Shown: positions 9,412 through 63,373 of the stretch, one piece after another | Numbering within the stretch: position 1 is the stretch's first letter | Layout: the number at the start of each line of letters is the position of its first letter | NCBI GenBank assembly: GCA_046563655.1 | Contig: CM102285.1 | Coordinates: 6,510,001-6,574,000, forward strand | Length of the DNA stretch: 64,000 nt | Origin: Yuukianura sp. NJ FZ-2021 | Taxonomy: Eukaryota | Direction of reading: 5' to 3' | Made by a program: the position numbers and the translations under genes | The notes under the pieces: generated by a model | What the model saw: the letters and a program-made list of their open reading frames with translations, nothing else | Told to the model about the DNA's origin: nothing | Database searches by the model: none

Positions 9412-15197
<5,786 letters not shown>

Positions 15198-31575: not shown

Positions 31576-31612
31576 CGTTGTTTATTTATTCTGGGCCAAA
31601 GAAGTTTAAAAA

Positions 31613-31955
31613 AATTCAAATTCAGGTACTTTAAATCAGAAATCTCATTACACCCCATATTAAGTCAAATTCAGGTACTTTACATCAGAAATCTCATTAT
31701 ACCCCAGGTTAAGTCAAATTCAGGTACGTTACATCAGAAATCTCACTATACCCCATGTTAAGTCAAATTCAGGTACTTTACTTCAGAAATCTCATTATAC
31801 CCCATGTTAAGTCAAATTCAGGTACTTTACTTCAGAAATCTCATTATACCCCATGTTAAGTCAAATTCAGGTACTTTAAATCAGAAATCAGACAGACGGA
31901 CAGACAGACGGACAGACAGACGGACAGACAGACGGACAAACAGACGGACAGACCG
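31613..31955. repeat. 49-bp minisatellite (~5.6 copies) followed by a (GACG GACA)n microsatellite
   Basis: Unit ttaagtcaaattcaggtactttac(a/t)tcagaaatctcattataccccatg starts at 31660, 31709, 31758, etc. The adjacent GTCY-type microsatellite suggests a second HINE-like family (inference). Confidence 0.9.
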
Positions 31956-42800: not shown

Positions 42801-44509
42801 AGAACGAAGTCATTGTTAATATGCAAAAGAGTGTGATGTGACTTTTGACACACACGACAACGAGACTTGGAATGACAGTTCTTGGGAGCATGAGCAAGAC
42901 CAAGACAGTTGAAACATCGATGCTGAGCCTTTGCTGTGTCCATCCGTTGAGCAATGGTCATGGCATTGAACTTTCCACATTTGAATAATGGATGAGGCTC
43001 TGAGCAAAGAACGCATTTTGCAGTGTTCACTGCATGAACCTTCTTACGGTCAACAGACTTCAGAGATTGTTTCGTTGACGCAGTTGAGATGCTCTGGAGG
43101 CCACGGATATGTTGCTCAAGACCTCCTTGTAGGTAGGAACGTTCGTTCCTGAAAGTTGGATGGCGAATTCCCGTTTTGTGTCAGGATCCAACTTTTCCAT
43201 TATGGTAAAGACCAGAACATCATCCCATTGGTCAACGTTACGGTTAAGGTTCCGTAACTGTCTCACGCACTTCTCGAAAGTATCAACCAGGTTCCTCAGT
43301 GAAGTCGCATTTTCCTGAAACAGTTTAGAAAGATTAAATAATTTTCGCAACAATGAAAATGCGATCTCGCGCGTGTTGTTGTATCGCTCGATACATAAGC
43401 CCCAAGCATCCTGGAAATTAGCGTTAGTGATTAGGAATGGCGAGACTATCTTTAGCGCATCGTCCTTGAGAGATGACTTTAGATACCGCACCTTTTCGCA
43501 ACCAGAGAAGCCGCCATTGTTGACGATGGAAGCCTCGAATTGATCACGGAAGGATGGTCAGTCTTCGTAACTGCCAGAGAATGTAGGAAGGTCAAGCTTT
43601 GGTAATTTGACTTTTGACGATGGATGAACGACTGACGGAGCGGAGGTTAGGGTGGATCCACTCTGGGTGTTGGAGTCCAGCTTCGCTAAGTATTTATAAC
43701 CTACGAAAACTTGTAAAACGGAATGAGTATTCCTAGCCTTATAGAAAGGTAAAAAGAGCAGAATGAGAACACTAAATGTAAATTAGTGTGAGTAACTTAG
43801 AAGTTGAGAAAAGGAAGAAACGAGTGTTTCTAATCCCTGTGACTAAAGTAAAAATAGCCTTGTTCTAAGAAATGAAATGCATGTAAAGTGAAACTAAAAT
43901 TAGGCTAAAATCATGAACTGTCGGTTTACCCGCCAACACTTCCTCAATTTCAATGACTTCCCAAAAGAACTTTTGTAGAACAAGGTTCAATTCCAGTTCT
44001 GTTTCTTCATTTTCTTCTTTTAACCCAATCACAATCACAATCAAATTTAGCTTTCTGGCTTGAATGTCAATCAGTTCCACACTTCGTTGTAATGCTGACA
44101 CATTTTTCTCAGTAACTGATTCTTTAAGTTCAATTGCTTTAAGACGATCCTTAGTTTCACCTAGGTCACTGCTAAGTTTGTCCACAGTTTGTTGTAACGT
44201 GGTGACCTGCTGCGTAATTCTATCAACTCCATCTTGAACTATTTGTGCAATACTGCTAAGTGTGAGATTTTGCACTGGGTTAAACTCCGGTACTTCTTGA
44301 GTATTTGCTCTTTTCGATTGAGCGGTTTGATCTTCGTCTTCGTCTTTAGTGTCTCTTCCTCTCTTTCCTTTCGAACCTTTCTTATAATTCGGCATTTCAG
44401 TCTATATGAATGACTGTAGGACGTGTGCGCGATTAGTGAGAGATTGGAGGCTATTGAGAGACTGAAGGCTAGTGAGGGACTGAAGGCTAGTGAGCGATTG
44501 AGTGAGGGT

Positions 44510-45137
44510 TTAAGAGGGTGTGTGCATTGCAATGAAGCGTGATCCACAAAAACTTCAAAATTAGTGAGAAATTGGGAGTTCTAGGTGGTTTAATGAAATT
44601 ACCAGCAAAATTTTCATAAAAACAGGGTTAGAATTAGTGAATCCAACACAAACATTAGCCCTGAAAACGATGTGTTCTTGAGAGGTTCTAAGAGGGGGTT
44701 GTGCATTGCAATGAAGCGTGATCCACAGAAATTTGTAAATTAGTCGGATATTGCGAGTTTTAGCTGGTTTAATGAAATTACCAACAAAATTTTGATGAAA
44801 ACAGGGTTAGAGCTAGAAAATCGAACACAAACATTAGCCATGAAAACGATGTGTTCTTGAGAGGTTCTAAGAGGGGGTTGTGCATTGCAATGAAGCGTGA
44901 TCCACAGAAATTTGTAGATTAGTCGGATATTGCGAGTTTTACCTGGTGTAATGAAATTACCAGCAAAATGTATCATAAAAAAGTATTAGAGCTAGAAAAT
45001 CCAACACAAACATTAGCCCTGAAAACGATGTGTTCTTGAGAGGTTCTAAGAGAAGGTTGTGCATTGCAATGAAGCGTGATCCACAGAAATTTGTAAATTA
45101 GTGAGAAATTGCGAGTTTTAGGTGGTTTAATGAAATT
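44510..45137. repeat. 179-bp tandem repeat (~3.5 copies)
   Basis: gtgcattgcaatgaagcgtgatccaca recurs at 44522, 44701, 44880 and 45059. Confidence 0.9.
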
Positions 45138-46057
45138 TGTTTGGGTGAAATGACAGTTTCATTCTGAAATGGGTGTGTCGGGTTGAGATGATGCCAGTGA
45201 GGAAGCGGTTTTCTTTCTTATTTAAAATAGCATCATCGAATGCTTCCGAACTGGCTTCGGACTCAAGCCCGAACCACAACGATACACTTTTGCACTAGTT
45301 CTTATGGGAAAGATAAATTGTGTGTACTTTTTGTCTTTTAGTAGTATTTCATTCATTCAGAAGTCTTCTGCTGCGTCTCTTTGGTTTAAGACCATAATCT
45401 TAAGACCAGTTTCTCTTTCCATTCAAGTATAACTGTAATTCGATTCATTAGGCAAATAAACTAGTAAAACTTAAATCATCTTCGGATCCAATCAGAACCA
45501 CCCCTCATTCATTTCATGGTCCTTCGAAATCGTGCAATTCGAGTCATCAGTTTCCGTTCTAGCGGACTTAATGAAGACGGTGTCTTTGCGGACTGCTCTC
45601 AAGCCCAAACTTCAACGGGTTGAAGGTGATTTAAAGTCTAAATCGATTGATTACTCTTTAGTAGAATTGCAGGTTTTACTTGATGGAGTGGACAAATACC
45701 AGACTAAGCTGGACAGTATTCAGGAGTCGATGTTCTCCGTCGTCACAGAGCCAGACGAAGTCAATGTCCAAATAGAGGCAGGGTTAGGTTAGGTGGACAT
45801 GCTAGGTAGACATGCTAATTCAGAGCTGCCAGTTTCTCATACGTCAGGGAATCACTGACAAGACGGTGACTACGCCGGTCGTAAGTGAGGTAGCTGGGAC
45901 GAGTTCTGCTAGTAGTGTCAATGGTAACCCAAAAATGAATGCTAAATTGCCTAAACTTGAGTTACCCAGCTTCAGTGGTTCATTTGAGGAATGGATCATC
46001 TTTCGTGACCAGTTCCAGTCACGGATCGTCTCCAATACGTCACTTTCTGGAAGTGTA
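45138..46057 (+). mobile_element. 5' part of a second BEL/Pao element (LTR, PBS, gag start)
   Basis: TG...CA LTR 45138-45516 followed by BEL-type PBS TGGTCCTTCGA. gag remnant includes AKLPKLELPSFSGSFEEWIIFRDQF. Truncated by the LTR insertion at 46058. Confidence 0.85.
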
Positions 46058-46349
46058 TGAGGTCATGGACCTCATCGGAGAGTTAAGTGTTTAGTTAATT
46101 AGAAATTAAGTAGGGCGAATGCCCATAAGTGGTTGTCCCCGGTCTCCCTCCATTTTTTGAGTCGGCAGAGCCGACAGAAGAACACAACCAGATTCTCCTC
46201 GCCTCGCTCCAGCAGATTCTGCTGCCACGCCGTCAAGAGCTCCCTTGGACAGCTCCAGTAGGTAGATAGAGGGGACTTTCACGCCAAATCAACCTTTGGA
46301 CCCATAAGGCTTAAAACCCACTGGCGTGAGATCCTTATGACTTATCAAA

Positions 46350-46600
46350 GTCAGACTAATTGTCTGTGACGACTAATTAACACTTCCGTTGAAGACCAAT
46401 TAAGACTTCCAAGACTAATTAAGACTTCCTGTGACGACTAATTAACACTTCCGTTGAAGACTAATTAAGACCAATTAAGACTTCTAAGACGAATTAAGAC
46501 TTCCTGTGACCCAGCTTAACATTAATTAAGACCAATTAAGACTTCCTAAACTAATTAAGACTTCCTGTGAGCTTAATTAGTACCTTTGTCCGTTAACACC
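46350..46600. repeat. Subterminal TAATTAAGACTTCC(TGTG) motif array of the Polinton
   Basis: More than 10 degenerate copies. Repeated at ~47175-47320 and inverted at ~59475-59610. Confidence 0.85.
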
Positions 46601-47465
46601 TTGGACAAATAGGAATCCATGGGGAGGAGTTTTGGTTATCCAATGAGAGTCCTGAATACCGCGACCAAGACGGTTAAAAGGAGACGATGAAGTCTAAATA
46701 GTCAGTTACTTTGTCAGCTTCACAGCGTCATGGCCATATTTTTCGATTTAAGGGCGAGCCGGTTTCGTGTTTTCGTTGTTTTTGGGAAGCCATCCCGTCC
46801 ATCCCCTAGTCCCTTAGCGAAGGGCTTTTCGATTCCTTATTCTACAGGACTAGAAGTGTCCTTCCCGCTGCCACCAGCTGCCCCCGCGGTATAGGTCATC
46901 GGATACATGGAGTCAAAGGTCAGCATGTGATCACATAATGACCCCATGCAAGTAATATGTCGTTGGAACGGGCTTGACCTCCTGATTCAGAAAATGTATA
47001 CAGGTTGATAGTTCTGACCAACCGTTTGACCTACAGGGGTCATAACATGGATGACCTCTATACTTGCTGGGGTCTAGAAGTAGTAGAAGGGTAGGTAGGA
47101 CTTTCGACTCAAATCAACCTTTGGACCCATAAGCTTTTTTACAGCATGAGTTCTATCCCCAGTCAGCTGGCTAATTCACATTAATTGAGACTAATTAATA
47201 CTTCCTGTAAACATTAATTAATGCTTCCTTCTACAATTAATTAACACTTCCTGTTGCTTCCTGTGACCAATTAAGACTTCCTTTTCTTAATTAAGATTTC
47301 CTGTGACCGAGCTTAATTAGTAACCTTTGTCCGTTAACACGTTGGACAAATAGGAATCCACGGGGAGGAGTTTTGGTTTTCCAGTAACCAATGAGTGTCC
47401 TGAATACGCTTAAATGGAGACGATGAAGTCTAAATGGTCAGTTACTCGGTAAGCTTCACAGCGTC

Positions 47466-47834
47466 ATGGCCATTTTTATCGATTTAAGGGCGAGCCGGCT
47501 GCCTGTTTACCATTTCTTGTCACCAATCTTAAAGCACAAATTCCACCAGGCATTGGACAACTTTGTGGACTATACACAACAAATCAGAACCAAGGAAGGC
47601 TGCAACAGGATTTTTACCGAATACCCGCTACTCCAAGGATTTGAAGACGATCAACATGCTGAATCCATGTGGACGTACATACTTGGAAAATATTCAAATT
47701 CTTTATTAGACTCTTACGTGGCTAATATTGTTGAAAACTTTTCTGCCAATTCAAAGTCAAATCTACTAATTTTTGAAGAAATTTTTGCCATGCAACTTAT
47801 TGTTGCTGCTGTTACTTTTAAGCCGAATGAATAA
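47466..47834 (+). CDS. Hypothetical Polinton protein
   Basis: 122-codon ORF converging on the protease gene, with back-to-back AATAAA/TTTATT at 47830-47843. No recognised motif. Confidence 0.4.
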   Translation: MAIFIDLRASRLPVYHFLSPILKHKFHQALDNFVDYTQQIRTKEGCNRIFTEYPLLQGFEDDQHAESMWTYILGKYSNSLLDSYVANIVENFSANSKSNLLIFEEIFAMQLIVAAVTFKPNE

Positions 47835-47838
47835 AAGT

Positions 47839-48363
47839 TTATTGTTCGCAAAATTTTTTGCAGCACTGAACAGTGCGTGGAAATACAGAGCCAAGTCTAC
47901 AAATTCTTTTCTTTACAAAGTTTACAACAATTTTATCATTTGCTACAGTATCGTTTGTAAAGTTTCTATACATATTTCCAATACATCCATTTTCTTTAAA
48001 TAGCTTATGAAGAAAGTAAATTGTATAGTGACCACAAATATCGCTGGTGATGCTCTGTAGAATTCTATCCGAATCAATAAGTTTTGAAGAATTAATATTC
48101 ACAAAGTTTCTAAATATTTCATTGTAGTTTTCGATTCCTCTTCTATAGGAATCTATGAAAATGATAGGACATGATTTTTCCGCCTGGTAAAGTGTAAGCC
48201 AGTGCTGCCCTGGTTCAGAACTAACATCAGAATTACAAACTAAATACAATGGGTATATTTGAATTTTTAAATTTACAAGCAAGTCACAGGGTATTACATT
48301 AAATGTACAACTATTATCTGACAAGAAGCAGTTCAGGTATATATAAATTTCTTCGGTGTTCAT
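47839..48363 (-). CDS. Adenain-like (C5/Ulp1-fold) cysteine maturation protease
   Basis: N.D....PGQHW, FIDSY and LQS..SDICG carry the His-Asp-Gln-Cys catalytic residues. Confidence 0.9.
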   Translation of the reverse strand: MNTEEIYIYLNCFLSDNSCTFNVIPCDLLVNLKIQIYPLYLVCNSDVSSEPGQHWLTLYQAEKSCPIIFIDSYRRGIENYNEIFRNFVNINSSKLIDSDRILQSITSDICGHYTIYFLHKLFKENGCIGNMYRNFTNDTVANDKIVVNFVKKRICRLGSVFPRTVQCCKKFCEQ

Positions 48364-49694
48364 ACTTCGATTGCTGGAGAGTTTGGAAAATCTTCGAAGT
48401 AGGCGTTCTTGCTTTTATCAATATACAACACTGATTGATACTCAGCATAGACGATAACCGTGACAGACTCGGTTAGAGCTTCTTTAAATGCCAGATCAAT
48501 CTTCACATTTCCGTACTTGGGGAGCGCAAATCCATCTCGAATGTGTCGAAGATTGTAAACTAGCAGAGGATGTCTCTTAAATGTTTCCCGTGTGATATCC
48601 AAGCCAACGCCTTCATTCGAAACTCCGAGTCCTTCAAACAGGTTGTTGTAGAGTTGAATGTATTGATTTTGACTGAAATCCAATTGAAGAGGTAGATACG
48701 TGTTGTCTCCATTTATAGCAACTTCCACACGATTGAGGTTGAAATCTTGAAATCGAAATGGGTTCCTCCTTATATCTCCACTGTAGGCTTTTGAGGAAAC
48801 TAATCCCACAACAATTCGATCTGGTAGTAATCCGCTTAGCACAGTGTCATTCACATCGTTGGTAGCTCAAGTAGCAATAGCATAGGCTTTGAGTTCCACA
48901 CGTTTCATTGGATATGTCGCAGGATTTCCAGCATGGAGCGCTGAAATTGTTGCATTCAATAGTGTAGGCAGAAGAACATGCTTTTTGATCAAAAGCTTGG
49001 CTTCAACAATCCGAACCGTTGCACTTGTCGTTTGTCCAGTAAACAGGCAAAAGGCAGTTGGCGATCTTGCGAATGATACCCGCATATCAATACCAGGGAT
49101 CAAGTATTTGTTTTGAAGAAACAAGTCGCAAAACGGGCGACCAATCATTTCAAACACTTGACTTCCCTTTGTCACTTTGTAGCGTTCACTGAAGCCATCT
49201 TCGTCGGTGGTAAGAACAGATGCTGGATCGTTTTCACGATAGTACAAGTCACATTGAGCTTGTGACTTTTTATACTCTCTGTTGTAAGAAAGTAGAGTGT
49301 CCAAATAGATTCTGTATCCATAATGGTTTGTTGATGGTGTAACCAAGACTTCGTTCAGATAGATGGCTGCTTGTTGAAACATTGAATGCAAAAAGTTGTT
49401 AACTGTTCCCACAACTGTTGCTTCTTCGAGTTGACTTCCATCTGGTTTGACCACTCTGGCTTTAACGCAAAGCTTTGTTTCGCTCAAATCGATAAACTGA
49501 ACATCGTTTGATTGAATGAAGAATTCCAAGGGTGATGTTTGATCACTAATTGACGTGATTGGATAATGCTCTGACGAGTGTGTTGAAACCAGGCTGACAT
49601 CGTAGTGTGGCTCTTGAAACAGTTGTGTCTCTGAACGGATGAATGTAAACGGTAGTGTGGATGGTGCACTTGCTAGTTTTACTCAGAGTGGCAT
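48360..49694 (-). pseudogene. Major capsid protein (double jelly-roll, Polinton PY type), two in-frame stops
   Basis: One frame of 444 codons: MPL*...RSETQLF..HYPI..PLEF..IDLSET..VNNFLHSMFQQ..YGYRIYLDTLL..GRPFCDLFLQNKYL..AIAT*..G.LPDRIVVGLV..NPFRFQ. TGA at codon 4 and at 48867-48869. Confidence 0.9.
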
Positions 49695-49695
49695 T

Positions 49696-50043
49696 TTAGA
49701 ACAGAAACTTTCCGTCAGTTTTCCGCTTCCTTTTCTGATTGCGCTTCCTTCGCTTCCCAGAACCAGACTGATCCATAATCTGTGATCCAACTCTTTTTAA
49801 AGCTTCCCGTCCATGTTCCTTTATCGCAGAGGAAAGTGGTTGCTTCTTTGCAACCATGTCGGTGGCAATACTTGTAATTGCAGATGTTGCATGTGGTAGA
49901 ATAAATTTTTTCAAGAATGGTACAAGATAGCGAGCTACGCTACCAAAGACACCACTAAGACCTCCACCTCGTTGTGTTCGGATGCCGGCAAAATACAGAC
50001 GTCCGTCGTCAAATGCTCCTCCGTTTTGCAAGTGATAATTCAT
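49696..50043 (-). CDS. Small basic virion core/membrane-active protein with QxGG motifs
   Basis: LQNGG, FAG...QRGGGLSGVFGSVARYLVPFLKK (amphipathic) and QSGSGKRRKR. This small-ORF type typically lies between the Polinton capsid genes. Confidence 0.75.
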   Translation of the reverse strand: MNYHLQNGGAFDDGRLYFAGIRTQRGGGLSGVFGSVARYLVPFLKKFILPHATSAITSIATDMVAKKQPLSSAIKEHGREALKRVGSQIMDQSGSGKRRKRNQKRKRKTDGKFLF

Positions 50044-51779
50044 TCCTTTTCTCGAAATTGTAGTGTCACCGTCACACTTCCAAATTGTAATGGCATTCTT
50101 TCACCACTTTCGTTTAATATATACACGTGCACTGTGTCGAATTCTGATAAGGCAAGCTCCATAAAATGAGGATGTATAAATTCATGATGTTGTTGTTCAC
50201 GATTGTTTCCACTGTAGGTTACCACACGAAGACAAGGGGCTAATCTATCTCCAATATACTGAGGTCTGACCAAATTACAATAAACAAATAATTTGGTATT
50301 TCCCGCTGTAAGGAATATAGGGTAAGCCCCTACACCTTCGCACTTATGAAGACCAGAGACCTTGACCGGAGATTCCGCTTCATCCTCACTGGGGGAGGAC
50401 TCTGCTTCAGTTGTCTTGTCAATTGAAGATTCCTCTGTAATTTCTTTGGAGGTTTTTCTTACTTCATGCAGTGGATTTTCCCCAGGTTTTACCAGTGGTT
50501 GATTTTCTTCGTGTATGGACACAGGTTTTGAGACTGGTTCAGTTTCCTCAAGATTAGATTGAACTGGCTTGTCGGGTTTAACTGGTCTAATTTCAGGAAT
50601 TTTCTCAGATGGAACTGGTTGAACTTCCTCAGCAGTTGGTCGAATTGCATTGCTAGTTTGCGAAAGGGCAATTGGTTCTCTCATTGACTTGTATATAGTT
50701 CCTTCCGGTAAATTGTAGTTGTATTCTTTAGCTTCTCGGAAAACCGTAGTTTGTGGAATTCCAAATAGTCGGTTAATTTCTGGTGTGAAGAAGGCTTGCA
50801 TTTTAGAAGTTCCTTTCCAAAGAATTCTCACGGTGTTTTGATTCATGAATATGTAGATGGGAATATCGCTACTTCTGCATATCTTGTTTATAGTGTTCAC
50901 CAGGTCTTCAATGTTGGCCACTGCGGAACTATGGACCTCGTATTTTTTTGATTTCCTCGGGCTTGAAAACAAGAAGGCGACAGATCCTTCATAATTATTG
51001 AGGTCTGTAACGTTGAATTCCCGTTCGGCTGTATAATCTTGAGTCAGCAGAAACTCATTTTCTGAGAAACCCAAGAGGTTGGCAAAATCCTTTGGATATA
51101 TTTCCACCTTTCTGTACTGTTGATTGTACATGCGCATGATGATTGTACCAGTCTTGCTCTCCAGTTGAATGCCATTGTGTAGTAACAATACATTCATCGG
51201 GGTGAAAAACCTAGAGAGCGAATTAGCTCGCACTTTATTGAATCCAGTTTTTGTACGTTTCGCTGCCTCAAAGAAATGAATTCCATTTCCATCTCGAATT
51301 TGGAGTTGTTGTGGTGCTTGATCATGTTGTATATATTGGCGATGTGATCGGCTACTTGTCAACTTCTCACTAGGCAAGCCCAACAAGTCCTTGATTTTTT
51401 CGGTCACTGTGATGACTTCTTTTGGGTTACTCAACTCGATGCTATATTCCAATACGTTGTTGTTGATTGAAAATGTCGAATTTGGAAGAGCAGTCCTGAG
51501 AACATCGAGCATTTCGTCCTGGGTTGTAACATCTGTTTTGCTTCGCAGATCAGTTTCAGTAACAGAGTTCAGCTCCCATCTTCTCGTAAACAGCAATTCG
51601 TCTTTACTTATAATGGCCAATCCAGCGGTGTAGCTAATGTCTGTCATAGCGACCTCCCATCGTCCAGGTGGGAGGGATATAAAAGTCCCAAGCCTATTTT
51701 TAAACTCTGGAATTGTATTGTCTTCATAAATCTTTGTTGACGCGTTTGACTGAAGAGTAACATAAAAGGATTGAACCAT
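50040..51779 (-). CDS. Minor capsid protein (penton, PX), extended 579 aa
   Basis: N-terminus SFYVTLQSNAS..NT..F..L....WEVAM and C-terminus LFVYCNLV..Q.IGD..APCLRVV...FDTVHVYI.NE.GE...F.SVTVTLQFR are the PX jelly-roll ends. Confidence 0.88.
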   Translation of the reverse strand: MVQSFYVTLQSNASTKIYEDNTIPEFKNRLGTFISLPPGRWEVAMTDISYTAGLAIISKDELLFTRRWELNSVTETDLRSKTDVTTQDEMLDVLRTALPNSTFSINNNVLEYSIELSNPKEVITVTEKIKDLLGLPSEKLTSSRSHRQYIQHDQAPQQLQIRDGNGIHFFEAAKRTKTGFNKVRANSLSRFFTPMNVLLLHNGIQLESKTGTIIMRMYNQQYRKVEIYPKDFANLLGFSENEFLLTQDYTAEREFNVTDLNNYEGSVAFLFSSPRKSKKYEVHSSAVANIEDLVNTINKICRSSDIPIYIFMNQNTVRILWKGTSKMQAFFTPEINRLFGIPQTTVFREAKEYNYNLPEGTIYKSMREPIALSQTSNAIRPTAEEVQPVPSEKIPEIRPVKPDKPVQSNLEETEPVSKPVSIHEENQPLVKPGENPLHEVRKTSKEITEESSIDKTTEAESSPSEDEAESPVKVSGLHKCEGVGAYPIFLTAGNTKLFVYCNLVRPQYIGDRLAPCLRVVTYSGNNREQQHHEFIHPHFMELALSEFDTVHVYILNESGERMPLQFGSVTVTLQFREKE

Positions 51780-51825
51780 GTTGACAACTTGAACACGACT
51801 GATGATTTATTACAGTGTTTCGTAA

Positions 51826-52563
51826 TTATATAGACAACCACCGTCCACCGTTTTGCCGTACTCGTTTCATTGCTGGTGTGTCATCTAGTACAGCGGCATT
51901 CATGTTGAGACTTCGACGTAGTCTTCGCTTCATGTTAACTTATTGAGAGCGATGAAGTGGTTCTGTAGGTACAGGAGAGAACGAATGTGCCGGTGTAGTG
52001 TACTCCTCTGTAGTCGGTGTAGTTTCTCCTTTTTCAAGTTCCAGATACGCACGCATTTCTCTTGGAATATTCTCCACGGTGGACAGAATAACATCTACAG
52101 CATCCTCCATTCCAAAGGGTGTAATGTATTGTGAACTGTCTTCAATTTTGATAATGTGTTGTAAGATTTGGATTATGCTCGATCCTGGATATCTCACTCC
52201 ATCAATGATAATTTCAAACTTCTCGTTGTATTTAATACGGGCTAACTTCATAAGATTTAAAATTTTCTCTGTGATATTTCTGTATGATTCTCCAACTTCT
52301 TTGAGGATATACGGTTTTGATAGTTCCAGAAAAATGTCATCTTCGCTCGAACTAGCGCTTGACACCTTTGTTACATCCTTAACAAGAAGAGGCTTCTGAC
52401 TGTCAGCTTTAGCTGTTTGGAGTTGTCGCCGCAATTGATCCAGATAAAAAAGATTTTTGATCTCCGTAGGAACATCAGTCGCTAGTATTTCTCCCAGTTT
52501 TGTCTTAGGACTTCCTTTCCACTGCAGATATTCAGCCTCAGGTATTAACCGCATACGACGCAT
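51826..52563 (-). CDS. Conserved Polinton protein (MRRMRLIP...IDG..YPGSSI), probable premature stop at 51940
   Basis: Motifs match a common Polinton accessory ORF. The frame continues past TAA to ...RQNGGRWLSI*. Confidence 0.65.
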
Positions 52564-52564
52564 A

Positions 52565-52900
52565 TTACTGGTTCAGGAGTTTCTTCTTCACGAGCGAGAA
52601 AGCTGCCGGCATTAGCGAACCAAGTATGAGAGGTAAAATAGCTTCTCCTCTCTGGCTCAAGAGCTTTCGTTTAAGATCCACTGATAAGCTCGGCTTTTTG
52701 CCTATCGTCCGTATCGGTCTTTCAAACTTCATTAACTTTTCCAGGACGGATGGCGTGACCGGAACGTTCTTTCGATACACGTTGTAGATGAGTTCACAAA
52801 TGCTGACAAGTTCCTCTGGGCTAGCGGTTTGTAAAAGAGCCTTTCTCTGCTTTGGTCCACACTTTGCTAAATATTTTAGAAAGTGTTTATTCGAGAGCAT
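52565..52900 (-). CDS. Conserved small basic Polinton protein (putative core protein)
   Basis: L..L....PKQRKALL..A....L..ICE..YN....VP and KRKLLSQRG..LP.IL pattern. Confidence 0.75.
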   Translation of the reverse strand: MLSNKHFLKYLAKCGPKQRKALLQTASPEELVSICELIYNVYRKNVPVTPSVLEKLMKFERPIRTIGKKPSLSVDLKRKLLSQRGEAILPLILGSLMPAAFSLVKKKLLNQ

Positions 52901-52938
52901 CCGGCTAGGCGTGGTGACGCATTACCGACTAGATTACG

Positions 52939-53000
52939 ACTGACTGTACAATTTAATAGCTCGGGTATATAAAGAAATTTCTCAGTCTCACTTGGTCAGT
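52939..53000. promoter_or_regulatory. Bidirectional TATA + TCAGT initiator promoter
   Basis: TATATAAA at 52966, with TCAGT 30 bp downstream on + (52996) and 28 bp downstream on - (52943), between divergent ORFs. Confidence 0.65.
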
Positions 53001-53003
53001 CGA

Positions 53004-53441
53004 ATGGGTTGCATTGCTAGCTTTGGATCCTATTTGTGTTCTCTGCTGAAAAACAACAGTGAGTTTTCGGTTTGTCAAAACTGCTCCTTCAATGTCGAAA
53101 TAAACAAAATGGAAGACGAAAATGGTCAAGACGCAATTGGGGAGGACGTGTATCAGGACGTGTTGGATATCATGCAAAAAAAGAAGAAGAAGAACGATAT
53201 TGTGAGCACGCCAACCGTGCTTCACGTTCAACGTTCAGCTCGAGGGTCGCCCCCGAAGCCCCAAATCCTGATGGATGGAGGATGGTCAATTTCCTTTGGT
53301 GATGAAGTGGGAATTGTCTCGTCCAGCCCTACCCACATTCACATTAGGAATATTGAAGACTCAAGTATTGGAATCGCAATGAAGATTGATTTATTCGGCT
53401 GCTTGTTGCATAGTATGTTAGAACTTAAAACGTACTACTAA
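53004..53441 (+). CDS. Hypothetical Polinton protein
   Basis: ORF directly downstream of TATATAAA + TCAGT. Stop overlaps the ATPase stop. No recognised motif. Confidence 0.5.
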   Translation: MGCIASFGSYLCSLLKNNSEFSVCQNCSFNVEINKMEDENGQDAIGEDVYQDVLDIMQKKKKKNDIVSTPTVLHVQRSARGSPPKPQILMDGGWSISFGDEVGIVSSSPTHIHIRNIEDSSIGIAMKIDLFGCLLHSMLELKTYY

Positions 53442-54082
53442 TACAATTTCGAAGTTGAATAAACACTACACAATTCTGGAAATATATTTGAACGGATTCG
53501 ATGATCGTCATTCTGTTGTTGAGACATGTCCAAATGTATGTAGCTGTTCGGTTTATTCCTTGTGAGTTCTTCATAGACCGTTCGCAAAATTCCCTCCTTT
53601 CCTCCATTCATCTGACGACTTGGGTTGATTATGCTCGTGTCTCTTGGATTCCGGAATAGCGTTATGTACTTGCTGTAGAGAGTGAGCGTTCGACAATTCT
53701 TGTAGAAAAAGTTTTGGAGTGTAATTATAATGGACATCGATCTATGGCTGGATCCTCTGGTGCACATTGAGCAAACGTCTTTGGATTGTGAGGCCTCCTC
53801 CATAAAGTCGTCCAAAATCACTAATGTTGGAATGGTGTTTCCTTCAGGTACATCAACGAGTAGACCTTTTTGAAAGTGTATTGCATCTCTCAATGCAGCC
53901 TTTAACTCTTCTGCAAAAGGAGGCTCATCTTCATTGTAGCAATACAACACTCGTTCAATGTGAGGATAAATTATTTCATCCTTTCGTAGTATCAAGTCCT
54001 TTATCAGGGTGCTCTTTCCGCACTGTGTAGGACCAGCGCAAGTCATTACAAATGGGTGGTGTAGACGATAGTCATATTCCAT
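53438..54082 (-). CDS. A32/FtsK-like genome packaging ATPase
   Basis: Walker A GPTQCGKS, Walker B LVILDD, R..SHRSMSIIITLQNFF and FRNPRD. Confidence 0.93.
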   Translation of the reverse strand: MEYDYRLHHPFVMTCAGPTQCGKSTLIKDLILRKDEIIYPHIERVLYCYNEDEPPFAEELKAALRDAIHFQKGLLVDVPEGNTIPTLVILDDFMEEASQSKDVCSMCTRGSSHRSMSIIITLQNFFYKNCRTLTLYSKYITLFRNPRDTSIINPSRQMNGGKEGILRTVYEELTRNKPNSYIHLDMSQQQNDDHRIRSNIFPELCSVYSTSKLY

Positions 54083-54145
54083 CTCGAAGGCTGGATGACA
54101 ACTGAATATAATAGTCGGAAGAGTCAGAATTTATTCAGTTTGAAA

Positions 54146-55061
54146 ATGGCAAGCAACATAGCAACACGTTGGACGAGCTTGAAAAATCCTGGGAGCTTTA
54201 GCGGCGTGTCAAATTTTAATCCAAAAGGTTTCAAGGACAAAGTGAGACATGAGCTGAAGAAGATTCCTGCGTATACTCTACATCACCCAGTCATACGGCG
54301 GTTTCCACGGAGGAAGGTGATGGTTAGCGGGATAACACGAACAATACTCTATGGATTTAAAGGACATCCGGAAACATTCAACAGCCAACTTTAAGAAAAA
54401 ATATCTTCTGGTTGTTATAGACGTATTTTCAAAGAAAGGCTGGATTGAAGCCATACCACGGAAAACTGGCGTTATTGTCACCAATGCCTTGAAGGAGATA
54501 TTTCAACGAAGCGGCTCTCTTCCGAAGAGAATCAGTGTCGATGAAGGAACAGAATTTCTGAACCAGACTATGAAAAATTATTTGAAGAAGAAAGGAATCG
54601 ACTTGTTTTGGACACATTCCCCTCTCAAAAGTGTTGTGATAGAACGATTTATTCGAACCCTGTTTTCAAAGATTCAGCGTTACATGACACATAACAACAC
54701 AAAGAGATGTGTCAACAGGCTTCATGATTTTGAAAAGCTATACAATAACACTTATTATAGAAGTAGAAAGATGGCACCGAACAATGTCACTAAAGATAAT
54801 GAACAACTAGTACATAGTTATCTGTATCCTGAAAAGCCAGTGGATCACACGCCGCCTAAATTTTCCGTTGGAGATAGGGTTTTAGCGGCTAGGAAAAAGA
54901 AGACATTTGAGAAGGGTTATTCACCCAACTATTATGATGAAGTTTATACAATTGTAAAAATTCGAGAAACAATTCCTAGAGTTTACATGTTAGAAGATCC
55001 TGAAGGCGTGCCAATCTTAGGAGGATGGTATGAAAATCAACTTGTCAAAATAAATTATTAA
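54146..55061 (+). pseudogene. Retroviral-like (rve) integrase of the Polinton, one frameshift near 54335
   Basis: PGSFSG, YTLHHP..RRFPRR, then MDL..YLLVVIDVFSK, SVDEGTEF, VIERFIRTL, FSVGDRV and FEKGY..GWYENQL. Confidence 0.92.
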
Positions 55062-58000
55062 ATGTCTCTATGTCCAAATGCTAATGTGTTAATTCTATCA
55101 ATACCATATCGTTTAGTATCTAAACCGTTTAGCGCCCTTTTTAACGTTACTTCTGTGAAAATTCTATGTTCTACACTTCGAAACCCTCTCATCCATACAC
55201 GAGTTTGAACATCTTTCTTGAGGACTTTCTCAAAATCTTCATAAGCTATTTGGTTGTTGACAGCTGTTTTAGTTATCCCTTTGACCTTCTTCGTGTATTC
55301 GTCTTTGATGAACCAGCTACCATCAGTCTTCTCTTGGTAAATATTTTTTCCATCAAATCCTTTGTAAACTTGTAGCTTTAAGGATCTAATTGTGTACATT
55401 TTTGGACGTGGACAAACGACATGAGTGACTACCGAACCGGCAGCCTCATCTTTGAATTTTCCCAAAACTTTTTTGTTTGTGGGATCGTGAAACTCTCCGA
55501 AAATGGGGTGATCGGATTCATATTCGCTCATGTCATACAAGTCCTTGTCTTGGCGCATGTCTTGATAAACGTCATCAGTTTGGATGTGATAGATGAAGGA
55601 ATCTGAAATAAAAACTTAGCTTTAGTTTAAAGTTAAATTGTTGAACAGTATAACATTTACCTGTGTCAGTATAAATAAGGCGACACTTGTCGACGCCGTA
55701 TTTCGCCTGTATAGTGTAGTGATGTCGATACATCATGCTCTTTGCCAGTTCAAGCACTGTTACCCCCGTAAATATCGGTTTGTTCAAAGTAACTTGAAGC
55801 CTCTTCATCATAAAGATGCATGTTGACTCGTTAATTGGGATGACATTCTGAACGGTGGGTTTCTTGTTGTAACGTAGAGCTTCTTCCATTGATGTAACGA
55901 TACGGACATTCTGACGCTTGCGTACTTGGTCGATTGTTTTACCAAATGCAGAATTGTTGAGGAGTTTCCAATAATCCTTTTCAAAGTCTGACTTTGCCTT
56001 TTTTCTCATTTTGGTGTTAAAGTCGATAAAGTCCTTCATCCATGGTCTCTGCTTGAAGGAAATTCCGCGGTGAAGTTTTGTAACTTTAACTCCAAGCATC
56101 AGGTACTCCATCAAAATGGCGTGATGTAGAATATAGTTTTTCTTATTGTTTAGATCTGCCACAAGTTTCTTAACTTTGAAAATTCCAGGACCTATGTCGA
56201 GTTTTTCCGTCAATTGTAATTGGTGACTGGACAGCTCGCTCTGTGCAACCGTACGGTTAACTGGAGCTGGAGGAAAATCATTCAGCTTGTCATGCAATAA
56301 AGGGTCAATTTCCAAATCCACTTCAAGCATGTATCCTTTTTCATCGTCCATGATGAAGTGGTTTTCTTGAAGTCTCCTCAGCTCTTTCTCTGTTAGCCAT
56401 TGGAACTGACCAGTTGGAAGCGGAAGACTCATGCTTTTGCCCTAGTGAATAATTAAATTTTAGATAATAATCTTTCATAGACGTTGTTGAATACTTACAT
56501 ATAAGTTGTTGGCATCGATGTAGATGAGGTAACTGGATTCCTTTTCTGGATCGTATTCATCTCCCATGTACTTGTTGTTCGCTCTAGCCTCTCGCATGGA
56601 TCCAACGCTAACGTATCCACCTATAAATAAAATGAATTAGAAAGTCTCTACCATTTGTCTGCTAGGTTTTACCTCTAATAGCATGCTCCAGCCAGCAATG
56701 CATGGTTGGATCCGTGATTAGCTCCAATTCCACTCCTGATTTCTTGAGAACGCAATCCATTGCCATCTTTGGCAAAGAGAAGTAATGGGCCAGGTCCAAT
56801 TCGTAAGCATCAAACATTATTTTTCGGATTCCTTCCATCACATCAGCCAGAAGCGATACCTCTAGTCTGACGTATAAGTCATGCCAATCTCCCATGTCTT
56901 GAATGTTGAAGTTCTTCCAGACTTTTTGAGCGTGCTCGTACAATTTATCATCAATGTGTGACTCTGTCAAGTCATTGTAGAAATCTTCTTTTGGTGGTAG
57001 ATTTTTGATTTTGAAATCTTTACAAGACTTCATGAGAGAATAAGGGTAAACACCCTTATTGAAGAGAAGCTCAATGTCATCGTATTGTGCAAACTCCTGT
57101 CTTGTGATTGGAAATTTGGCATTGGGATCAGCTCGCATCACTTTCACTAATTTGTCCAAGGATTTCAGTGTAAATCCAAGACTGTCTGTAAACCTCAGCT
57201 TGAAGGGCTTTTTCTGCCAGCGAGGTGGTTCTTCGTCCTCATCGACATCATCGTGGTTTGCGGGAACGATACTCATGGACATATATTTTTCACTGCTCTT
57301 AGGGATAAAAGTGATGTCCTTGATGATACCGTCCTGCTTTAGCTTTCCAGCAGATTGCACAATGAAGTGAACGTCATAGGATGAAAAGTTGTGCATGAAG
57401 ACGGGAGACTCCTTTTGATTTGTGCTTGGAGGTTGCAGTCTTGATGAGCCATTCCGATATAGTTGAACGGTGGAAGATGTGAATGGTGTCGCACTTTAGT
57501 CCCATCCAATGTCTTCCTGCAGAAACAACAATTTTTTTCCATTGCAGCAGCACTTCTTTGTGCTGGAGTCAGATTAAGCATATCTGGTGCAATTTTTTCA
57601 TAGTAACGCACTTCCTCTTCCAGTGTTTTGGAGTACTCAGTAATGTTTTGAATAAATTTGGCGGCAACGTCTTCGTCATCGTTAGTGATATGATAATATT
57701 CACCATGTCGTCGTTTTCCATTGAAGTCTACGCAAACCCATGCATATCCACATGGCTTGTGTCGGTGAGTGCAACACTTATTTACAGGTTGAACTGGTCT
57801 TCCACGTATTTGTTCTTTGAGTTGTCGGCGCTCCTCCTCTTCTATAGTTGATGGATTAAATTTTGGCAGAAAAGCTTCGAAGTCTGCGTAGAATCGAAAT
57901 GGTGCTGGCTGAGTTCTATCCCACTTGTTGAACGCCAATTTGTTGTCTGTAGGATATACAACTTTTTGAAGATCCAAGGAAGCGCAATACTGGAGGTGTT

Positions 58001-59274
58001 GTTGTAGAGTCTGAGATGATTGGAAATTGGAGAGACAGTTGCGGCAAATATGCTTGACTTTGTGATCATTTGGGGCTCTCATTAATGCCTCGAAGTTCCT
58101 AATAAGAATGAAGTGGGCATTGTTTTCTTGCATTAGACACATCAAGTCCACATGTATTTCCTTTGACTGTTGTGAGTTGTACAGTATTGAGATCTTGCTC
58201 TGTATAAAATTGAATGATTCAATTTTGCTCAGCTTCTGAAAACCCATGTCATCACCATCCATGTCATAACAGAGAACAGTTATAGAAATGTTCGGGTTGA
58301 GTTCTTCAAAGCGAGGGATCTGCTCCAAAGTCATCGGAAAATGGAGTCCTTTAGTGTTCAACTTGCATTCCTTTGGGTGGTATGTTTTCACAAGCTTGTC
58401 AATACGGCACCTATGGTTATTTTTTCCAACCGGAATACCACCGATTTTGTCATGCGCGAGTATTGACCAGACGAAGCATTTGTTGTGGGAATTGTCCATT
58501 GACACTTTGCTGTTGTTGATGTTAAGCAGAACTTTTTGAGTCGATAGTGGGTACGGGGTCTCCATGTATGTACCAATCTTGGTGAATCGATACTTTGATG
58601 TGACAAATCCAAATTTCTGAATGGAGTCCAGAGTCCAGCCGCTGCCCTCATTTGTGAAATCTTCAATTTGATCTGACATTTGACTGCACATGACTGACCA
58701 AACTTTAGGTAGCATGGTTGCATTGAAGACAAGGTGTCGAAATGAGGTGAATCCGACATCCTTTGATTCAACCGTTCCATCTGCGTGCGTTTTGGTGAAG
58801 TGACACCCCAAGGTAAAAAATATCCTTAAGTTCTTCATAGGATGATTGCTTAACATTTGCGAAAAAGTCTCTCTCGTCGACACCTTCACCACATGGAAAT
58901 GTATCAAAGTCTGCCATGTACTTGCGACTCATTTTTAGAGATTCCAGCACTAAAGTCACAGATATGGGATCGGTTGAAATTCCTCCGCCAACTTGAATGT
59001 TAAAGTCTGGATGAGTTGTGTAGAAATGTTCTTGAAGCTTATTCCGACAATTAAAGGAAATTCCGCATTGCCAGCAGAACAAATGGCGATATTCTTGTAG
59101 CGTACTCTCAGCTGTGGCATCACAACCTGGTGGTGCTGGTTCAAAACAGTTCTTATGGACAGTGTCAACATGTAGTTTTAATAATGGTCGAGAGGTAAAT
59201 CCATGACCGCACAGAATGCAGTTAAAGAGTTTACTAGGTCGACCAACAATTGATGTTCCTTGGCGCTTCGACAT
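55058..59274 (-). pseudogene. Protein-primed family B DNA polymerase with three spliceosomal introns and two frameshifts
   Basis: Exons 59274-56673, 56620-56499, 56441-55661, 55602-55058. N-terminal C2H2 fingers, EGSGW, exonuclease YADFE / HNFSSYD / KGVYPY, endonuclease-VII-like CxxC..RHH..AHxxCN insert, IRGG, DANNLYG, KLLNNSAFGK, YTDTDS. Frameshifts near 58850 and 57405. Confidence 0.95.
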
Positions 59275-60725
59275 TATGACAATAGCAAGTGTTTAGGACA
59301 ATAAGGATCTTAGGAGTGTTGAGGAGTTGTGTAAAGACTGAAAGTCTCCGTAAAAGTTGGTGGTATTATATCTCTAGTCGGAGCCGACCCCCAAAGCTGA
59401 CCCCCTAAAAGACTGGGTGAAGGTATAGCCGTTTTCCTTCCTTTGTGTTCCTCCTCCCCAACGGACAAAGGTGCTAATTAGTGTTAATTAATGTTCACAG
59501 GAAGAGTTAATTAGTTTTGGAAGTCTTAATTGGTCTTGAACGGAAGTGTTAATTAGTCTTAATTAATGTTCATGCTGGTCCCAGGAAGCATTAATTAGTC
59601 TTAATTAATCTGAAAGAACCCGCCCACGTCCACCCGGTACATCAACCTCTGGTTCCTGGAGGAACAGCTCATCCACAACTTAATCCCCCGTCCTCCAAAA
59701 CACTATTCCGGCATCTAATTCACACGAAACTCATCAACTCTTAATTCTCCGGTATTCCAATTCCACCGCTAAAATAACTAGTGCTACCTCCCGTATTTCT
59801 CCTCCGTGATCAACTGGTGAAACCAAACTAAAATACACTCGATTAAAATACCTATTTTAACCTTTCATTCACCCTCATACACAAGTACAACCCAGTTTTT
59901 CTACGCTAAGTTTTAAGTTCCAACTAGTATTACCTTACCAATTACCGATTACTATAAGTTCAGCTCGAAACAAAGTGTAACTTGATAGGGCAATTGCCAA
60001 TGTCAAATAAACTAATTGATTGATTGATTAATTAATTTGACTTGTAGGATCTCACGCCAGTGGGTTTTAAACCTTATGGGTCCAAAGGTTGATTTGGCGT
60101 GAAAGTCCCCTCTATCTACCTACTGCTCCTCCGTCACTGTCAAATGGTCAACTGCAGAGAGGTCAACCAGGTCAGATCGGCAGACCAGCGATTGGTGCTA
60201 GGCCAGTGATTGGCCCTGCCAGTGATTGGCATTGTTGTAGCCAGTGATTGGCTTTGGTTTGGCCAGTGATTGGCCGGGAGCCTGCGATAGGCTTTTCCCT
60301 TCCCCCGGATCGGCGTTGGGTTAGTGTATGGCCCTTCAGGCCCTTTCGTTTAGCCCAAAGGGCTTAGTTAGTGGTTAGTATGTGAGAGAGCTACGATTCA
60401 ATAAATCGTAGCCCAAGAGATCATCGGTTTTTGCTCGTTTTTGTTTCATTTATTCATTGTGGGATTGAGCAGTGCGGAGAGGCACTGCTCAAGCCTCATA
60501 TCTGGTGCCCCGAGCCTTAACTGCCCCTTCAGATTCATGAGCATTTTAGTAAAATGGATGATTGATCACAGATCAATCATCGATTTTTGTAAAAATACCG
60601 CAAAAATCGGTTCGGATGCCGATCACTGGGTAGCGGAAGGCATGGTTTTCCCATTTTGTTCATAAGCAAGTGCAAAGTTCGGTTTTGCGCATTTGTGGTA
60701 AACACGTATTTTTGATTTCTCCTTT

Positions 60726-61743
60726 TTAGTGTTCTGGAGACGCACGTCTACGACGTGCTGAAGAAGACTATTGATACGACTTTGTCTGTCCGTCCGTCCG
60801 TCTGTCCGTAACGTTTTTTAGCACCCTTTTCACTGAAACATAAGCCCCATCGCAGTCGGGGGGTTATCTCTGGCTTAAGTGTTCTCGTTAGGTCTGCATT
60901 GCACTCAAAGTCGTACATTAACAACGCCAAAGTATGCGGCTGCTTTACGTACCCGCAGTATCGTGGCTCCGCAATACTGTTTTGGTTTCGATTACACTCA
61001 AAGTATTTATAAACAACGGAGTTTTGATCTGGTCATTTTCTGGCAGCATGTTTAATTGCGTTGTTAAATTAAGACTGATCAGAGGGTAGAAAATCCGGCT
61101 TAAATGTTTAATATGTGAATAGTGCATAAAAGGGGTCAAATTTGCATTTACTAGACATTTTATAATTCCGATTTTAACAAGCGATATTCGAGCCGTCACG
61201 CAAGCGTTCGTTTTTGTGCAGGATGCACACTTATGACCAACAGGGATACAAAAACGTTGAATTGTGCATTTACATAAACCAATTTTGATTTTTAGGAAAC
61301 GGCATTCGATCCCCCACTCCCCCAACGTTCAATTTTGTGCATGCTTGAGAACAAGTGCATCAAAATAATTTTGAACAGACTCAAATCTGAGCCAAATTAT
61401 AATGTATTGCCATAGCAACATCGATAATACATTGTGTGTATCTTGCTCAACAAATTAACAACATCAATTCAGTGCAGATATTGTGGACCTCAAAACTGAA
61501 ACATGACTTTGGTGCAATTAAACTGTAAAATTGCCAAGACAATTTTAGTGCAACTCATGCACACAATAAGATCTCACATTCACACTGAAAATTTTTATAT
61601 AGCTACGTTTTAGAGCATCAATTCCATGAAAACGGTTTCTCAGTTCGTCCACCGTTTTGCGGTAGGCCGGTCTCAATGTCGTGTCAATTGCGAACTCCCT
61701 CCAGAAGACCAATGCTCAACCCTTGAGCATCGCCCTACCTTGT
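60726..61743 (+). mobile_element. HINE / DINE-1-like element, copy 2
   Basis: Same subTIRs, GTCY repeat and GCTCAAcccTTGAGC hairpin as copy 1. T-run flanks. Confidence 0.85.
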
Positions 61744-62330
61744 TTTTTCGTCGAGCGCGGTCCGAACCCCGATCCAACTTTCCGCTTTCAATTTTTATTT
61801 TCAGTAAACTCAATTACTAATTAAATGTGGAAAGTTTAAATGCATAATTAACCATTGTTAATTAATTCCTGAATTCTAAATTCGCGTTTTTGTTTCTTTT
61901 TTGGGTTATCTCATGGTTTTTACTCGCAGTCCGAGTAAGCATTAGCAAATATAGTAACGGAGATACCCTCTCACACCGCGCTCAGATCGGTCAAACTTGT
62001 GCGCCGCGCTAGCGCTCTCTCATTTGATTTAACGGTTTTTTCTGCTACTCCAAAAACAGAAACAGATTTTTTTGGATTCTTTTGTAACGATGGCAGTTAG
62101 TGGTAACTGTTTACTAAAAGAAAATAGGTCAAGCCCCCCCTCCCCACACCCCCAGCCCTTGTCCGTTCACCCCGCTCAAATCCAGTTTACCCAATAGGGC
62201 ATGTGGTGGTGTGAAAGAAAGAAGAAAAAATTAAAAAAAATTATTAATTATACTAATAAAGTAAATTTAAATTGTTAATTAAGTTATTGTTAAATCTAAT
62301 TTATAAACTTAAAGAAAAACAAATAAAAAA

Positions 62331-63373
62331 ACAAGGTAGGGCAATGCTCAAGGGTTGAGCATAGGTCTTCTGGAGGGAGTTGACAATTGATACAACATTT
62401 AGACCGGCCTACCTCAAAACTGTAGAAGAAATGAGAAACCGTTTTCATGGAGTTGTTGCACCAAAACGTCGCTAAAAAGTTTCAGTGTGGATGCGAGGTC
62501 CTATTTTGTGCATGAGTTGCACCAAAATTGCGTTGGCTGTTCTACCATTTAATTGCACCAAAATCATGTTGCAGTTTTGAGACCCAAAATATTTGCACTG
62601 AATTGATGTTCTTAATTTGTTGAGCAAGATGCACGTAATGTATTGTCGGGGTTGCCATGGCAATAGACCATTAGCGAAAAGAGCGTAAACCAAACACCCT
62701 CAAAATAATGATATTGAAATTGAGATTTGTGCATGATGCACAAATTTGAACCCTGAGAAGGATGGATCGAATATACCTTCTTTTAAATCGAAATCGGTTC
62801 ATGAAGATGCGCATAATGTATTGTCGATGTTGTCAAGGTATGCTCAAAGTAGTTCTCAAACCTGCACAAACCTTCAATTGTGTGCATCATGCACAAAATT
62901 GTACGTTGTGGGGTGGGGTTCGAATATCGCTTGTTTATAATCAAAATTATAAAAATTTCTTGCAAAGGCAAATTTTAACCCTGCCAAGCACTGTTTCCAT
63001 ATTATGAGTTTCAGCCACATTTTCTACCCAGTTAAGTTTTAATTTAACAACGTGATTAAACTAGCTGTCAGAAAATGACAGGATCAAAACTTCGTTGTTT
63101 AAATATATTTTGAGTGTAATCGAAACCAAAATGTTTCCGAGAAACGACTGCACTTAGGGTGCATAAAGTGGCCGCCCATTTGCACGTTGTTAATATAACA
63201 CTTTGAGTGCAATGTAGACTTAATGAAAACACTTGAGGCATACGTAACCCCCCGCCAAAAATGGAGCTTATGTTTCAGCGCAAAAGATCCTAAAAAAGCG
63301 AACGGACGGACAGACAAAGTCGTATCAATAGTCTTCTTCAGCATGTCGTAGACATGCGTCTCCAGAAGACTAA
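62331..63373 (-). mobile_element. HINE / DINE-1-like element, copy 3
   Basis: Reverse-oriented copy: caaggtagggcaatgctcaagggttgagc...ggacggacagacaaagtcgtatcaatagtcttcttcagc...ctccagaagacta. Confidence 0.85.

Follow-up and report, generated by a model that had tools for sequence, protein, structure and literature searches.

The Polymerase Gene and Its Three Inserts

This study concerns a protein-primed family-B DNA polymerase (pPolB) gene that lies within a Maverick/Polinton (adintovirus-like) element on contig CM102285.1 of Yuukianura sp. The window is the whole stretch of DNA that was analysed, 64,000 nucleotides (nt) in length, and all positions are counted from its first letter. The polymerase gene is interrupted at three sites, referred to as sites 1 to 3, by short inserts that are probably spliceosomal introns. 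The gene and the putative introns were as follows, a slash marking the place of an insert.

55058..59274, minus strand: pPolB gene, with the ATG at 59274 and the stop at 55060-55058, supported by tblastn of P0186 and 10 other homologues.
56672-56621, minus strand: putative intron 1 (site 1), 52 nt, phase 1, GTAAAA...TTATAG, between AIR and GGYVS; its read-through is G-K-T and then a stop.
56498-56442, minus strand: putative intron 2 (site 2), 57 nt, phase 0, GTAAGT...CACTAG, between DANNLY and GKSMS (motif A); it contains three in-frame stops.
55660-55603, minus strand: putative intron 3 (site 3), 58 nt, phase 1, GTAAAT...TTTCAG, splitting an Asp codon in YTDT/DS (motif C); its read-through shifts the frame.

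Motif A and motif C are the names that we take to apply to the motifs at sites 2 and 3.

An earlier note on this DNA had assigned the gene to the Polinton/Maverick protein-primed polymerases. This assignment was upheld by a Pfam match, by the homologues and by a structural model. The translation of 56662-57495 matched Pfam DNA_pol_B_2 with 27.1 bits (cut-off 25.8), and the largest exon, used as a HMMER query against the whole library, had 9514 relatives at E<=0.001. The uninterrupted relative P0002 was modelled with a predicted local distance difference test score (pLDDT) of 93.8, and the best structural match of its model was phi29 DNA polymerase (E 7.6e-14, template-modelling score [TM] 0.54). 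In this model, strands 344-350 and 353-359 are joined by a turn that contains site 3, at the invariant D350-T-D352-S. The encoded protein has an N-terminal C2H2-like and endonuclease-VII/HNH-like region, followed by the exonuclease and polymerase domains. Its long N-terminal extension (57420-59274, minus strand) contains a C2H2-like zinc-finger stretch and a CCFC...HHSH...CN motif, and many homologues carry Pfam Endonuclease_7 in this region. In relative P0005, Endonuclease_7 alone was above the Pfam cut-off, and no Pfam match was found on the full-length relatives P0186, P0042, and P0325. The A1 profile search of PDB sequences gave no match.

Direct reading of the sequence found the three AT-rich GT-AG inserts at the minus-strand positions given to them by the earlier note. 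Their G+C contents ranged from 0.22 to 0.29, compared with 0.41 in the flanking exons. In each insert, a CTAAT/CTAAA-like branch motif was present, and the AG was preceded by a pyrimidine tract. GT...AG ends, a branch-like motif and a 3' pyrimidine tract, the features expected of U2-type introns, were thus found in all three inserts. In addition, the exon contexts were protosplice-like at site 1 (AG/GT) and at site 3 (CAG before the insert). A filter for intron-like stretches (GT[AG]A[AG]...[CT]AG, 45-70 nt, G+C <=0.30, pyrimidine-rich 3' end) found 14 candidates on both strands of the 64-kb window (0.11 per kb). On the coding (minus) strand of the element, the candidates were exactly three, namely introns 1 to 3, all inside 1.07 kb; the window-wide rate predicts about 0.12 for such a length. 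The scan gave no further intron-like insert on this strand, in agreement with the earlier claim that the other viral genes show no introns.

Homologs Across the Insert Sites

Exon pieces were aligned separately, and the exons were kept unjoined in all searches. When 10 polymerases were compared with the window by tblastn, frame changes were found at the insert places in 10 of 10 homologues. At site 3, the same query residue ended one match and started the next in 6 of them. At site 1, identical or adjacent query residues flanked the insert in 4 of the 10, and in the other homologues the matches overlapped by running on into the insert. At site 2, a 19-column gap was found in the homologue opposite the 57-nt insert in all three alignments printed. 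Thus, the frame changes, the contiguous residues and the gap opposite the inserts identify the latter as exact insertions. Between 57405 and 55061, 726 exon codons were open, and each insert has stops or shifts the frame. In the exon-by-exon alignment, removal of the inserts restored both the open frame and the conserved residues. The alignment to homologous pPolB proposed in the earlier note was carried out in this exon-wise manner with tblastn, and the insert boundaries were exact. The homologue coordinates, which are contiguous across the inserts, confirmed that removal rebuilds AIR/GGYVS, DANNLY/GKSMS, and YTDT/DSFIY. The placement of inserts inside motif A (DANNLY/G) and within YTDT/DS was also correct.

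A minority of relatives broke at the same sites. Alignments reached the end of exon 3 in 200 proteins, of which 190 continued past site 3 with D or N, two were alignment offsets and eight broke. In these eight (P0001, P0187, P0322, P0323, P0334, P0083, P0101, and P0111), G was followed by K-S, K-T, K-L, N-I, M or a stop. Residues G plus K, N or M after YxDT would be encoded by a split Asp codon together with a following GTAAGT, GTAAAT or GTATGT, and they agree with the read-through of the window (G-K-...). At site 1, P0322, P0324, P0038, and P0187 started on a few Leu/Phe-rich residues immediately before GGYVSVG. The window's own frame before site 1 was likewise Leu/Phe-rich (FILFI-GGYVS), which is how a pyrimidine tract reads. 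At site 2, 32 public open reading frames (ORFs) from 20 clusters started at a conserved Met 3 residues past the site; 13 of the 32 belonged to one cluster, most of them about 472 amino acid residues long and on contigs of up to 6.7 kb. Several of the public ORFs look like fragments produced by prokaryotic gene calling of polymerases that would be split by introns. The combinations of broken sites were as follows.

Window element: sites 1, 2, and 3 broken.
P0322 group (about 53% identity): site 1 broken, site 2 read through, site 3 broken.
P0001: sites 1 and 2 read through, site 3 broken.
P0186 (same 90% cluster as P0001): sites 1, 2, and 3 read through.
P0039 group: no e1/e2 part in the ORF, break near site 2, site 3 read through.

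The exons of the interrupted relatives were open, and their identities to exon 3 of the window ranged from 38 to 57%. Exons that stay open at such identities imply that the inserts are removed from the mRNA and would be hard to explain otherwise. The interrupted groups and the window were found in the same weakly supported 25-row clade of a quick tree, in which the placement of the window was also weakly supported and in no starred clade.

Most relatives were uninterrupted. Among the 80 metagenome loci listed (33-45% identity), 69 matched without interruption across site 1, 72 across site 2 and 79 across site 3; in the remaining loci the site was not covered, was at a contig end, or was associated with a frame shift or deletion. 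The unmatched upstream part of L067 was rejected as a poly-G artefact. Similarly, the numbers of uninterrupted matches among 56 mis-binned contigs of metagenome-assembled genomes (MAGs) were 44 for site 1, 47 for site 2 and 50 for site 3. These contigs with Maverick-type polymerases (L183-L238) are filed in bacterial/archaeal MAGs, several being 30-100 kb long with multiple copies, and look like mis-binned eukaryotic or viral DNA. Some of the uninterrupted forms might have been assembled from RNA.

Viral contigs were also scanned for DNA of the interrupted relatives. The query P0039 gave one distant locus, and P0001 gave none. The pattern YTDT followed by GGTAAG was found in 101 viral-contig stretches, 80 of which were tabulated, and tblastn of 102 loci (L081 up) identified no pattern hit as a pPolB relative. 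The sole tblastn match among the 102 loci was L081, which came from an earlier scan and was not a pattern hit.

Damage to the Window Copy and Other Copies in Public DNA Runs

Apart from the inserts, the polymerase gene of the window contained two frame changes.

57405..57417, minus strand: pPolB frame change 1, in the Exo I region, where it separates the CNLQ... motif from PVFMHNF.
About 58830..58900, minus strand: pPolB frame change 2; the frames of the ATG ORF 58768-59292 and of 57339-58928 align to P0186 on either side.

An intron was rejected as the cause of these frame changes, because there was no room for one, no AT-rich GT-AG stretch and no filter hit. The earlier note was right about the inserts of this copy but overlooked this damage to the same gene. 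The window copy is damaged and probably inactive, and part of its damage could be assembly error in short homopolymers.

Other copies were found in four DNA runs (X1-X4) from two studies, labelled as two organisms (A and B), whose contigs were aligned at 80% likeness. Of the sampled words of the polymerase region, 52-64% were present in the four runs, and the element was covered by hundreds of contigs with identities of 80-100%. Intron 1 was covered by contigs of all four runs, with substitutions at 56644 and 56646 in X2-X4 only. Intron 3 was also covered by contigs of all four runs, all of which had a substitution at 55615. Because of these substitutions, the contigs that cover both introns are not necessarily from the window copy. 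Among the 15 contig joints listed (34 more exist), no joint was found at an intron, which is uninformative on intron-free DNA copies. Moreover, one-base indel forms were found at 57412 and 54334 among contigs of all four runs. Thus, copies in another frame exist at these positions. In three runs, the polymerase (55063-58878) was covered two to four times as deeply as the structural genes, and there are probably partial copies, or related families whose polymerases are similar.

Origin of the Inserts

We interpret the inserts as genuine U2-type (GT-AG) spliceosomal introns that were inherited within a Maverick sublineage and whose presence or absence is mosaic. Judged from sequence comparison, the rough probability of this interpretation is 0.8. 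Since relatives are broken at the same three sites in differing combinations, the introns would be a lineage trait with gain or loss, not damage peculiar to the window copy. We infer that the inserts do undergo splicing and that intact copies with the introns are functional. In the proposed mechanism, transcription of the element would take place in the nucleus, and removal of the introns by the host spliceosome would restore the catalytic YxDTDS, motif A and the GG motif. In unspliced RNA, the reading frame would close three codons into intron 1, and no polymerase would be made. As the element would copy itself as DNA, the introns would pass to every daughter copy.

Several observations weigh against this interpretation. 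First, an intron-sized insert was found at any site in 0 of the 136 related DNA loci listed, and the breaks of the relatives are known from ORF ends and starts alone, the ORFs being those of prokaryotic gene finders. Second, the closest relatives found read YTDTDS through, including P0325 (73% identity, second half of exon 3), P0329 (65%), P0040 (62%), and P0002 (54%). P0186 also lacks the site-3 break, though P0001, a member of the same 90% cluster, has it; the two represent either near-identical elements that are polymorphic for the intron, or a DNA form and an RNA-derived form. Third, the ORF starts at site 2 are the weakest line of evidence, and the residues before the Met of P0083 do not match G-x-x. 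Finally, the window copy has two pPolB frame changes, an integrase frame change and a stop in the capsid-like gene, and could belong to a decaying lineage. The earlier note had regarded a lack of the inserts in other family members as grounds for giving up the introns. Most relatives do lack them, but the introns are not thereby disproved, since some relatives, though a minority, are interrupted at these very sites.

The introns might also have been kept long-term in the replicase core of an animal Maverick clade as beneficial, either through better export and expression or through escape from surveillance of intronless foreign transcripts. This extension of the intron interpretation is speculative and rather unlikely. 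If true, it would provide a natural system for studying intron turnover and splicing "self-marking" in a DNA virus-like parasite.

Regulated splicing of real introns, e.g., by intron retention, would switch replicase production on and off. Unspliced RNA cannot encode the palm motifs, so control of splicing would be control of the polymerase, and two of the introns are located in catalytic motifs. However, the introns resemble ordinary constitutive short introns, and their positions in motifs may just reflect the protosplice-like sequences at site 1 (AG/GT) and site 3 (CAG before the insert). The mosaic presence and absence among close relatives further argues that no single intron is needed, for regulation or otherwise. 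The "on/off switch" for replication suggested in the earlier note was pure inference; it found no support and is improbable.

The inserts could alternatively be unspliced junk insertions in a dead polymerase gene, with GT and AG ends by chance. The window copy bears other damage, and short insertions in vertebrate Maverick fossils were called 'introns' by gene finders (PMC8097293; this and other published sources are cited here for the available parts of their text). Against chance, GT-AG ends and low G+C are common to all three inserts, and their exact boundaries are such that removal rebuilds conserved motifs; introns 1 and 3 are covered by contigs of two organisms; and relatives of 38-57% identity are interrupted at these sites but have kept their exons open. 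Junk insertions are thus very improbable.

An origin of the inserts from an intron-generating transposon (introner or MITE-like, i.e., like a miniature inverted-repeat transposable element) is barely credible, for although such proviruses of dinoflagellates are populated by introners (PMC11957031), the inserts are unlike one another and the rest of the 64-kb window (best non-self matches <=19 nt, at chance level in the window search), are shorter than typical transposons, and show no target duplication or inverted ends. Self-splicing group I/II introns were rejected because inserts of 52-58 nt are far too short and no Rfam match at gathering score was found in 46000-60300. Ciliate-type eliminated sequences were rejected because the inserts are without TA boundaries and the host is an animal. 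A domesticated host gene was rejected because the polymerase is inside a multi-copy element that is bounded by terminal inverted repeats (TIRs) and has an empty site.

The Maverick/Polinton Element and Its Surroundings

The element and its other features were as follows.

46257..60124: Maverick/Polinton (adintovirus-like) element, about 13.87 kb, from empty-site contigs, TIRs and ends read directly.
46252..46256 (left) and 60125-60129 (right): target-site duplication GCTCC, 5 bp, read directly; 5 shared letters at the empty-site joint.
46256..46335, plus strand: left TIR, 80 nt, 99% complementary to 60046-60125; the element starts 5'-AG.
60046..60125, minus strand: right TIR, pairing with the left TIR.
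54065..55061, plus strand: retroviral-type rve integrase, Pfam rve 46.9 bits (cut-off 32.6), in two overlapping frames.
53438..54130, minus strand: packaging-ATPase-like gene with Walker A GPTQCGKST; weak Pfam matches below the cut-offs (Pox_A32, 20.8 vs. 22.8; Adeno_IVa2, 16.4 vs. 21).
48360..49682, minus strand: double-jelly-roll (DJR) capsid-like gene; Atlas protein-language-model features of 0.98 to DJR-like clusters, a lead only.
47839..48414, minus strand: adenovirus-type cysteine protease-like gene; Atlas protein-language-model features of 0.97 to Peptidase_C5 clusters, a lead only.

The 80-nt TIR pair was accompanied by further partial inverted-repeat pairs. Contigs of runs X1, X3, and X4 joined 46251 to 60125, omitting 13873 nt; this joint represents either an empty site or a copy of a repetitive flank that lacks the insertion. 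Polinton target duplications are 6 bp long, and 5 bp was read in the window element. The frame of the integrase changed near 54334-54394 in the window copy, and most contigs of other copies differed by one base at 54334. The capsid-like gene contained an in-frame TGA at 48867-48869. No Pfam or PHROGs match was found for the structural genes (capsid-like and protease-like). At 46940-47430, contig depth was up five- to eight-fold, with many contig ends at 46941-47007 and an opposite-strand joint at 47032/47077, which suggests a high-copy repeat or hairpin that is nested in, or common with, the element.

The MCM4 gene of the window was closest to decapod, collembolan, and insect MCM4, with identities of 62-64% over the last large exon. 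By this gene, the host is an animal and looks arthropod-like. MCM4 was also the one host gene used for intron comparison. Judged from tblastn gaps, several of its introns were about 50-70 nt long with similar GT...AG signals, others were 150-230 nt, and one was about 2 kb. The likeness in size of the inserts to short MCM4 introns, which the earlier note had pointed out, therefore holds for several of the MCM4 introns but not for the longer ones.

The rest of the window contained several other mobile elements. To the left of the Maverick (36000-44600, minus strand), a run of ORFs was of the long terminal repeat (LTR) retrotransposon type, with a gag-like zinc knuckle, protease/reverse transcriptase/RNase H-like and integrase-like parts. 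A 343-residue transposase-like ORF was located at 30633-31664 on the minus strand. The region 29843-30795 paired as a 75-93% inverted repeat with 62329-63315, and 60796-61076 paired with 63035-63315 at 77%. The region of the transposase-like ORF and that at 62.3-63.3 kb look like several copies of one DNA transposon family. Finally, four MITE-like foldback pairs of 300-400 nt, 93-100% complementary and with short spacers, were found at 7372-8250, 10626-11786, 18042-18809, and 20984-21937, one of which sits within the roughly 2-kb MCM4 intron.

Significance and Comparison With Known Systems

If the introns are spliced, the replicase would depend on the host nucleus and spliceosome, which bears on where and how Mavericks and adintoviruses express their genes. 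Prokaryotic gene finders, which have been used on such elements on the ground of 'no introns' (PMC10120064), would break these polymerases and score intact elements as degraded. The mosaic at three fixed sites would also be a small and tractable case of intron gain and loss in a mobile element that is copied as DNA.

The view of the earlier note that Polinton/Maverick genes are usually uninterrupted is borne out for core genes by the available parts of three sources. Vertebrate Maverick core genes are called intronless (PMC8097293), the core genes of nematode Mavericks are intronless and introns are found only in host-derived cargo genes (10.1101/2022.07.12.499685), and protist endogenous viruses are described with the words 'they do not contain introns' (PMC10120064). 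The available text of the adintovirus paper (Starrett et al. 2021; PMC8502044) does not mention spliceosomal introns, and introners are present in dinoflagellate Maverick-Polinton-like proviruses (PMC11957031). Searches of full-text literature turned up no report of spliceosomal introns in the polymerase of an animal Polinton; Repbase and supplementary tables were outside their scope, and an earlier description is possible.

Similar to phi29 DNA polymerase (PDB 2EX3, 1XHX, and 2PYJ), the model of P0002 has a protein-primed family-B fold. Different from the phi29 enzyme, to which identities are 14-15%, the proteins of the animal elements have a long extra N-terminal region, and the phage gene is without introns. 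Adenoviruses, a different virus family, are among the nuclear DNA viruses whose genes are transcribed by host Pol II and which depend on the host spliceosome. What is spliced there is mostly leaders and alternative transcripts rather than short introns inside the catalytic motifs of a polymerase.

Similar to animal Polintons/Mavericks and adintoviruses, the element of the window has pPolB, an rve integrase, TIRs starting 5'-AG, a short target duplication and multiple copies, as well as packaging-ATPase-like, adenovirus-type protease-like and double-jelly-roll capsid-like genes, for which the matches here were weak or leads only. Different from the animal Polintons/Mavericks described in the available sources, it has three spliceosomal-type introns, as predicted here, in a core polymerase gene. 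Like the nematode Mavericks (10.1101/2022.07.12.499685), it is integrated and TIR-bounded and has what looks like the same core gene set, whereas its putative introns are in the core replicase rather than in cargo genes. Finally, similar to the introner-bearing proviruses of dinoflagellates (PMC11957031), it carries spliceosomal-type intervening sequences inside an integrated Maverick-like element. Different from these proviruses, whose introners form repeated families and whose hosts are protists, the inserts found here are unique sequences of 52-58 nt in an animal host.

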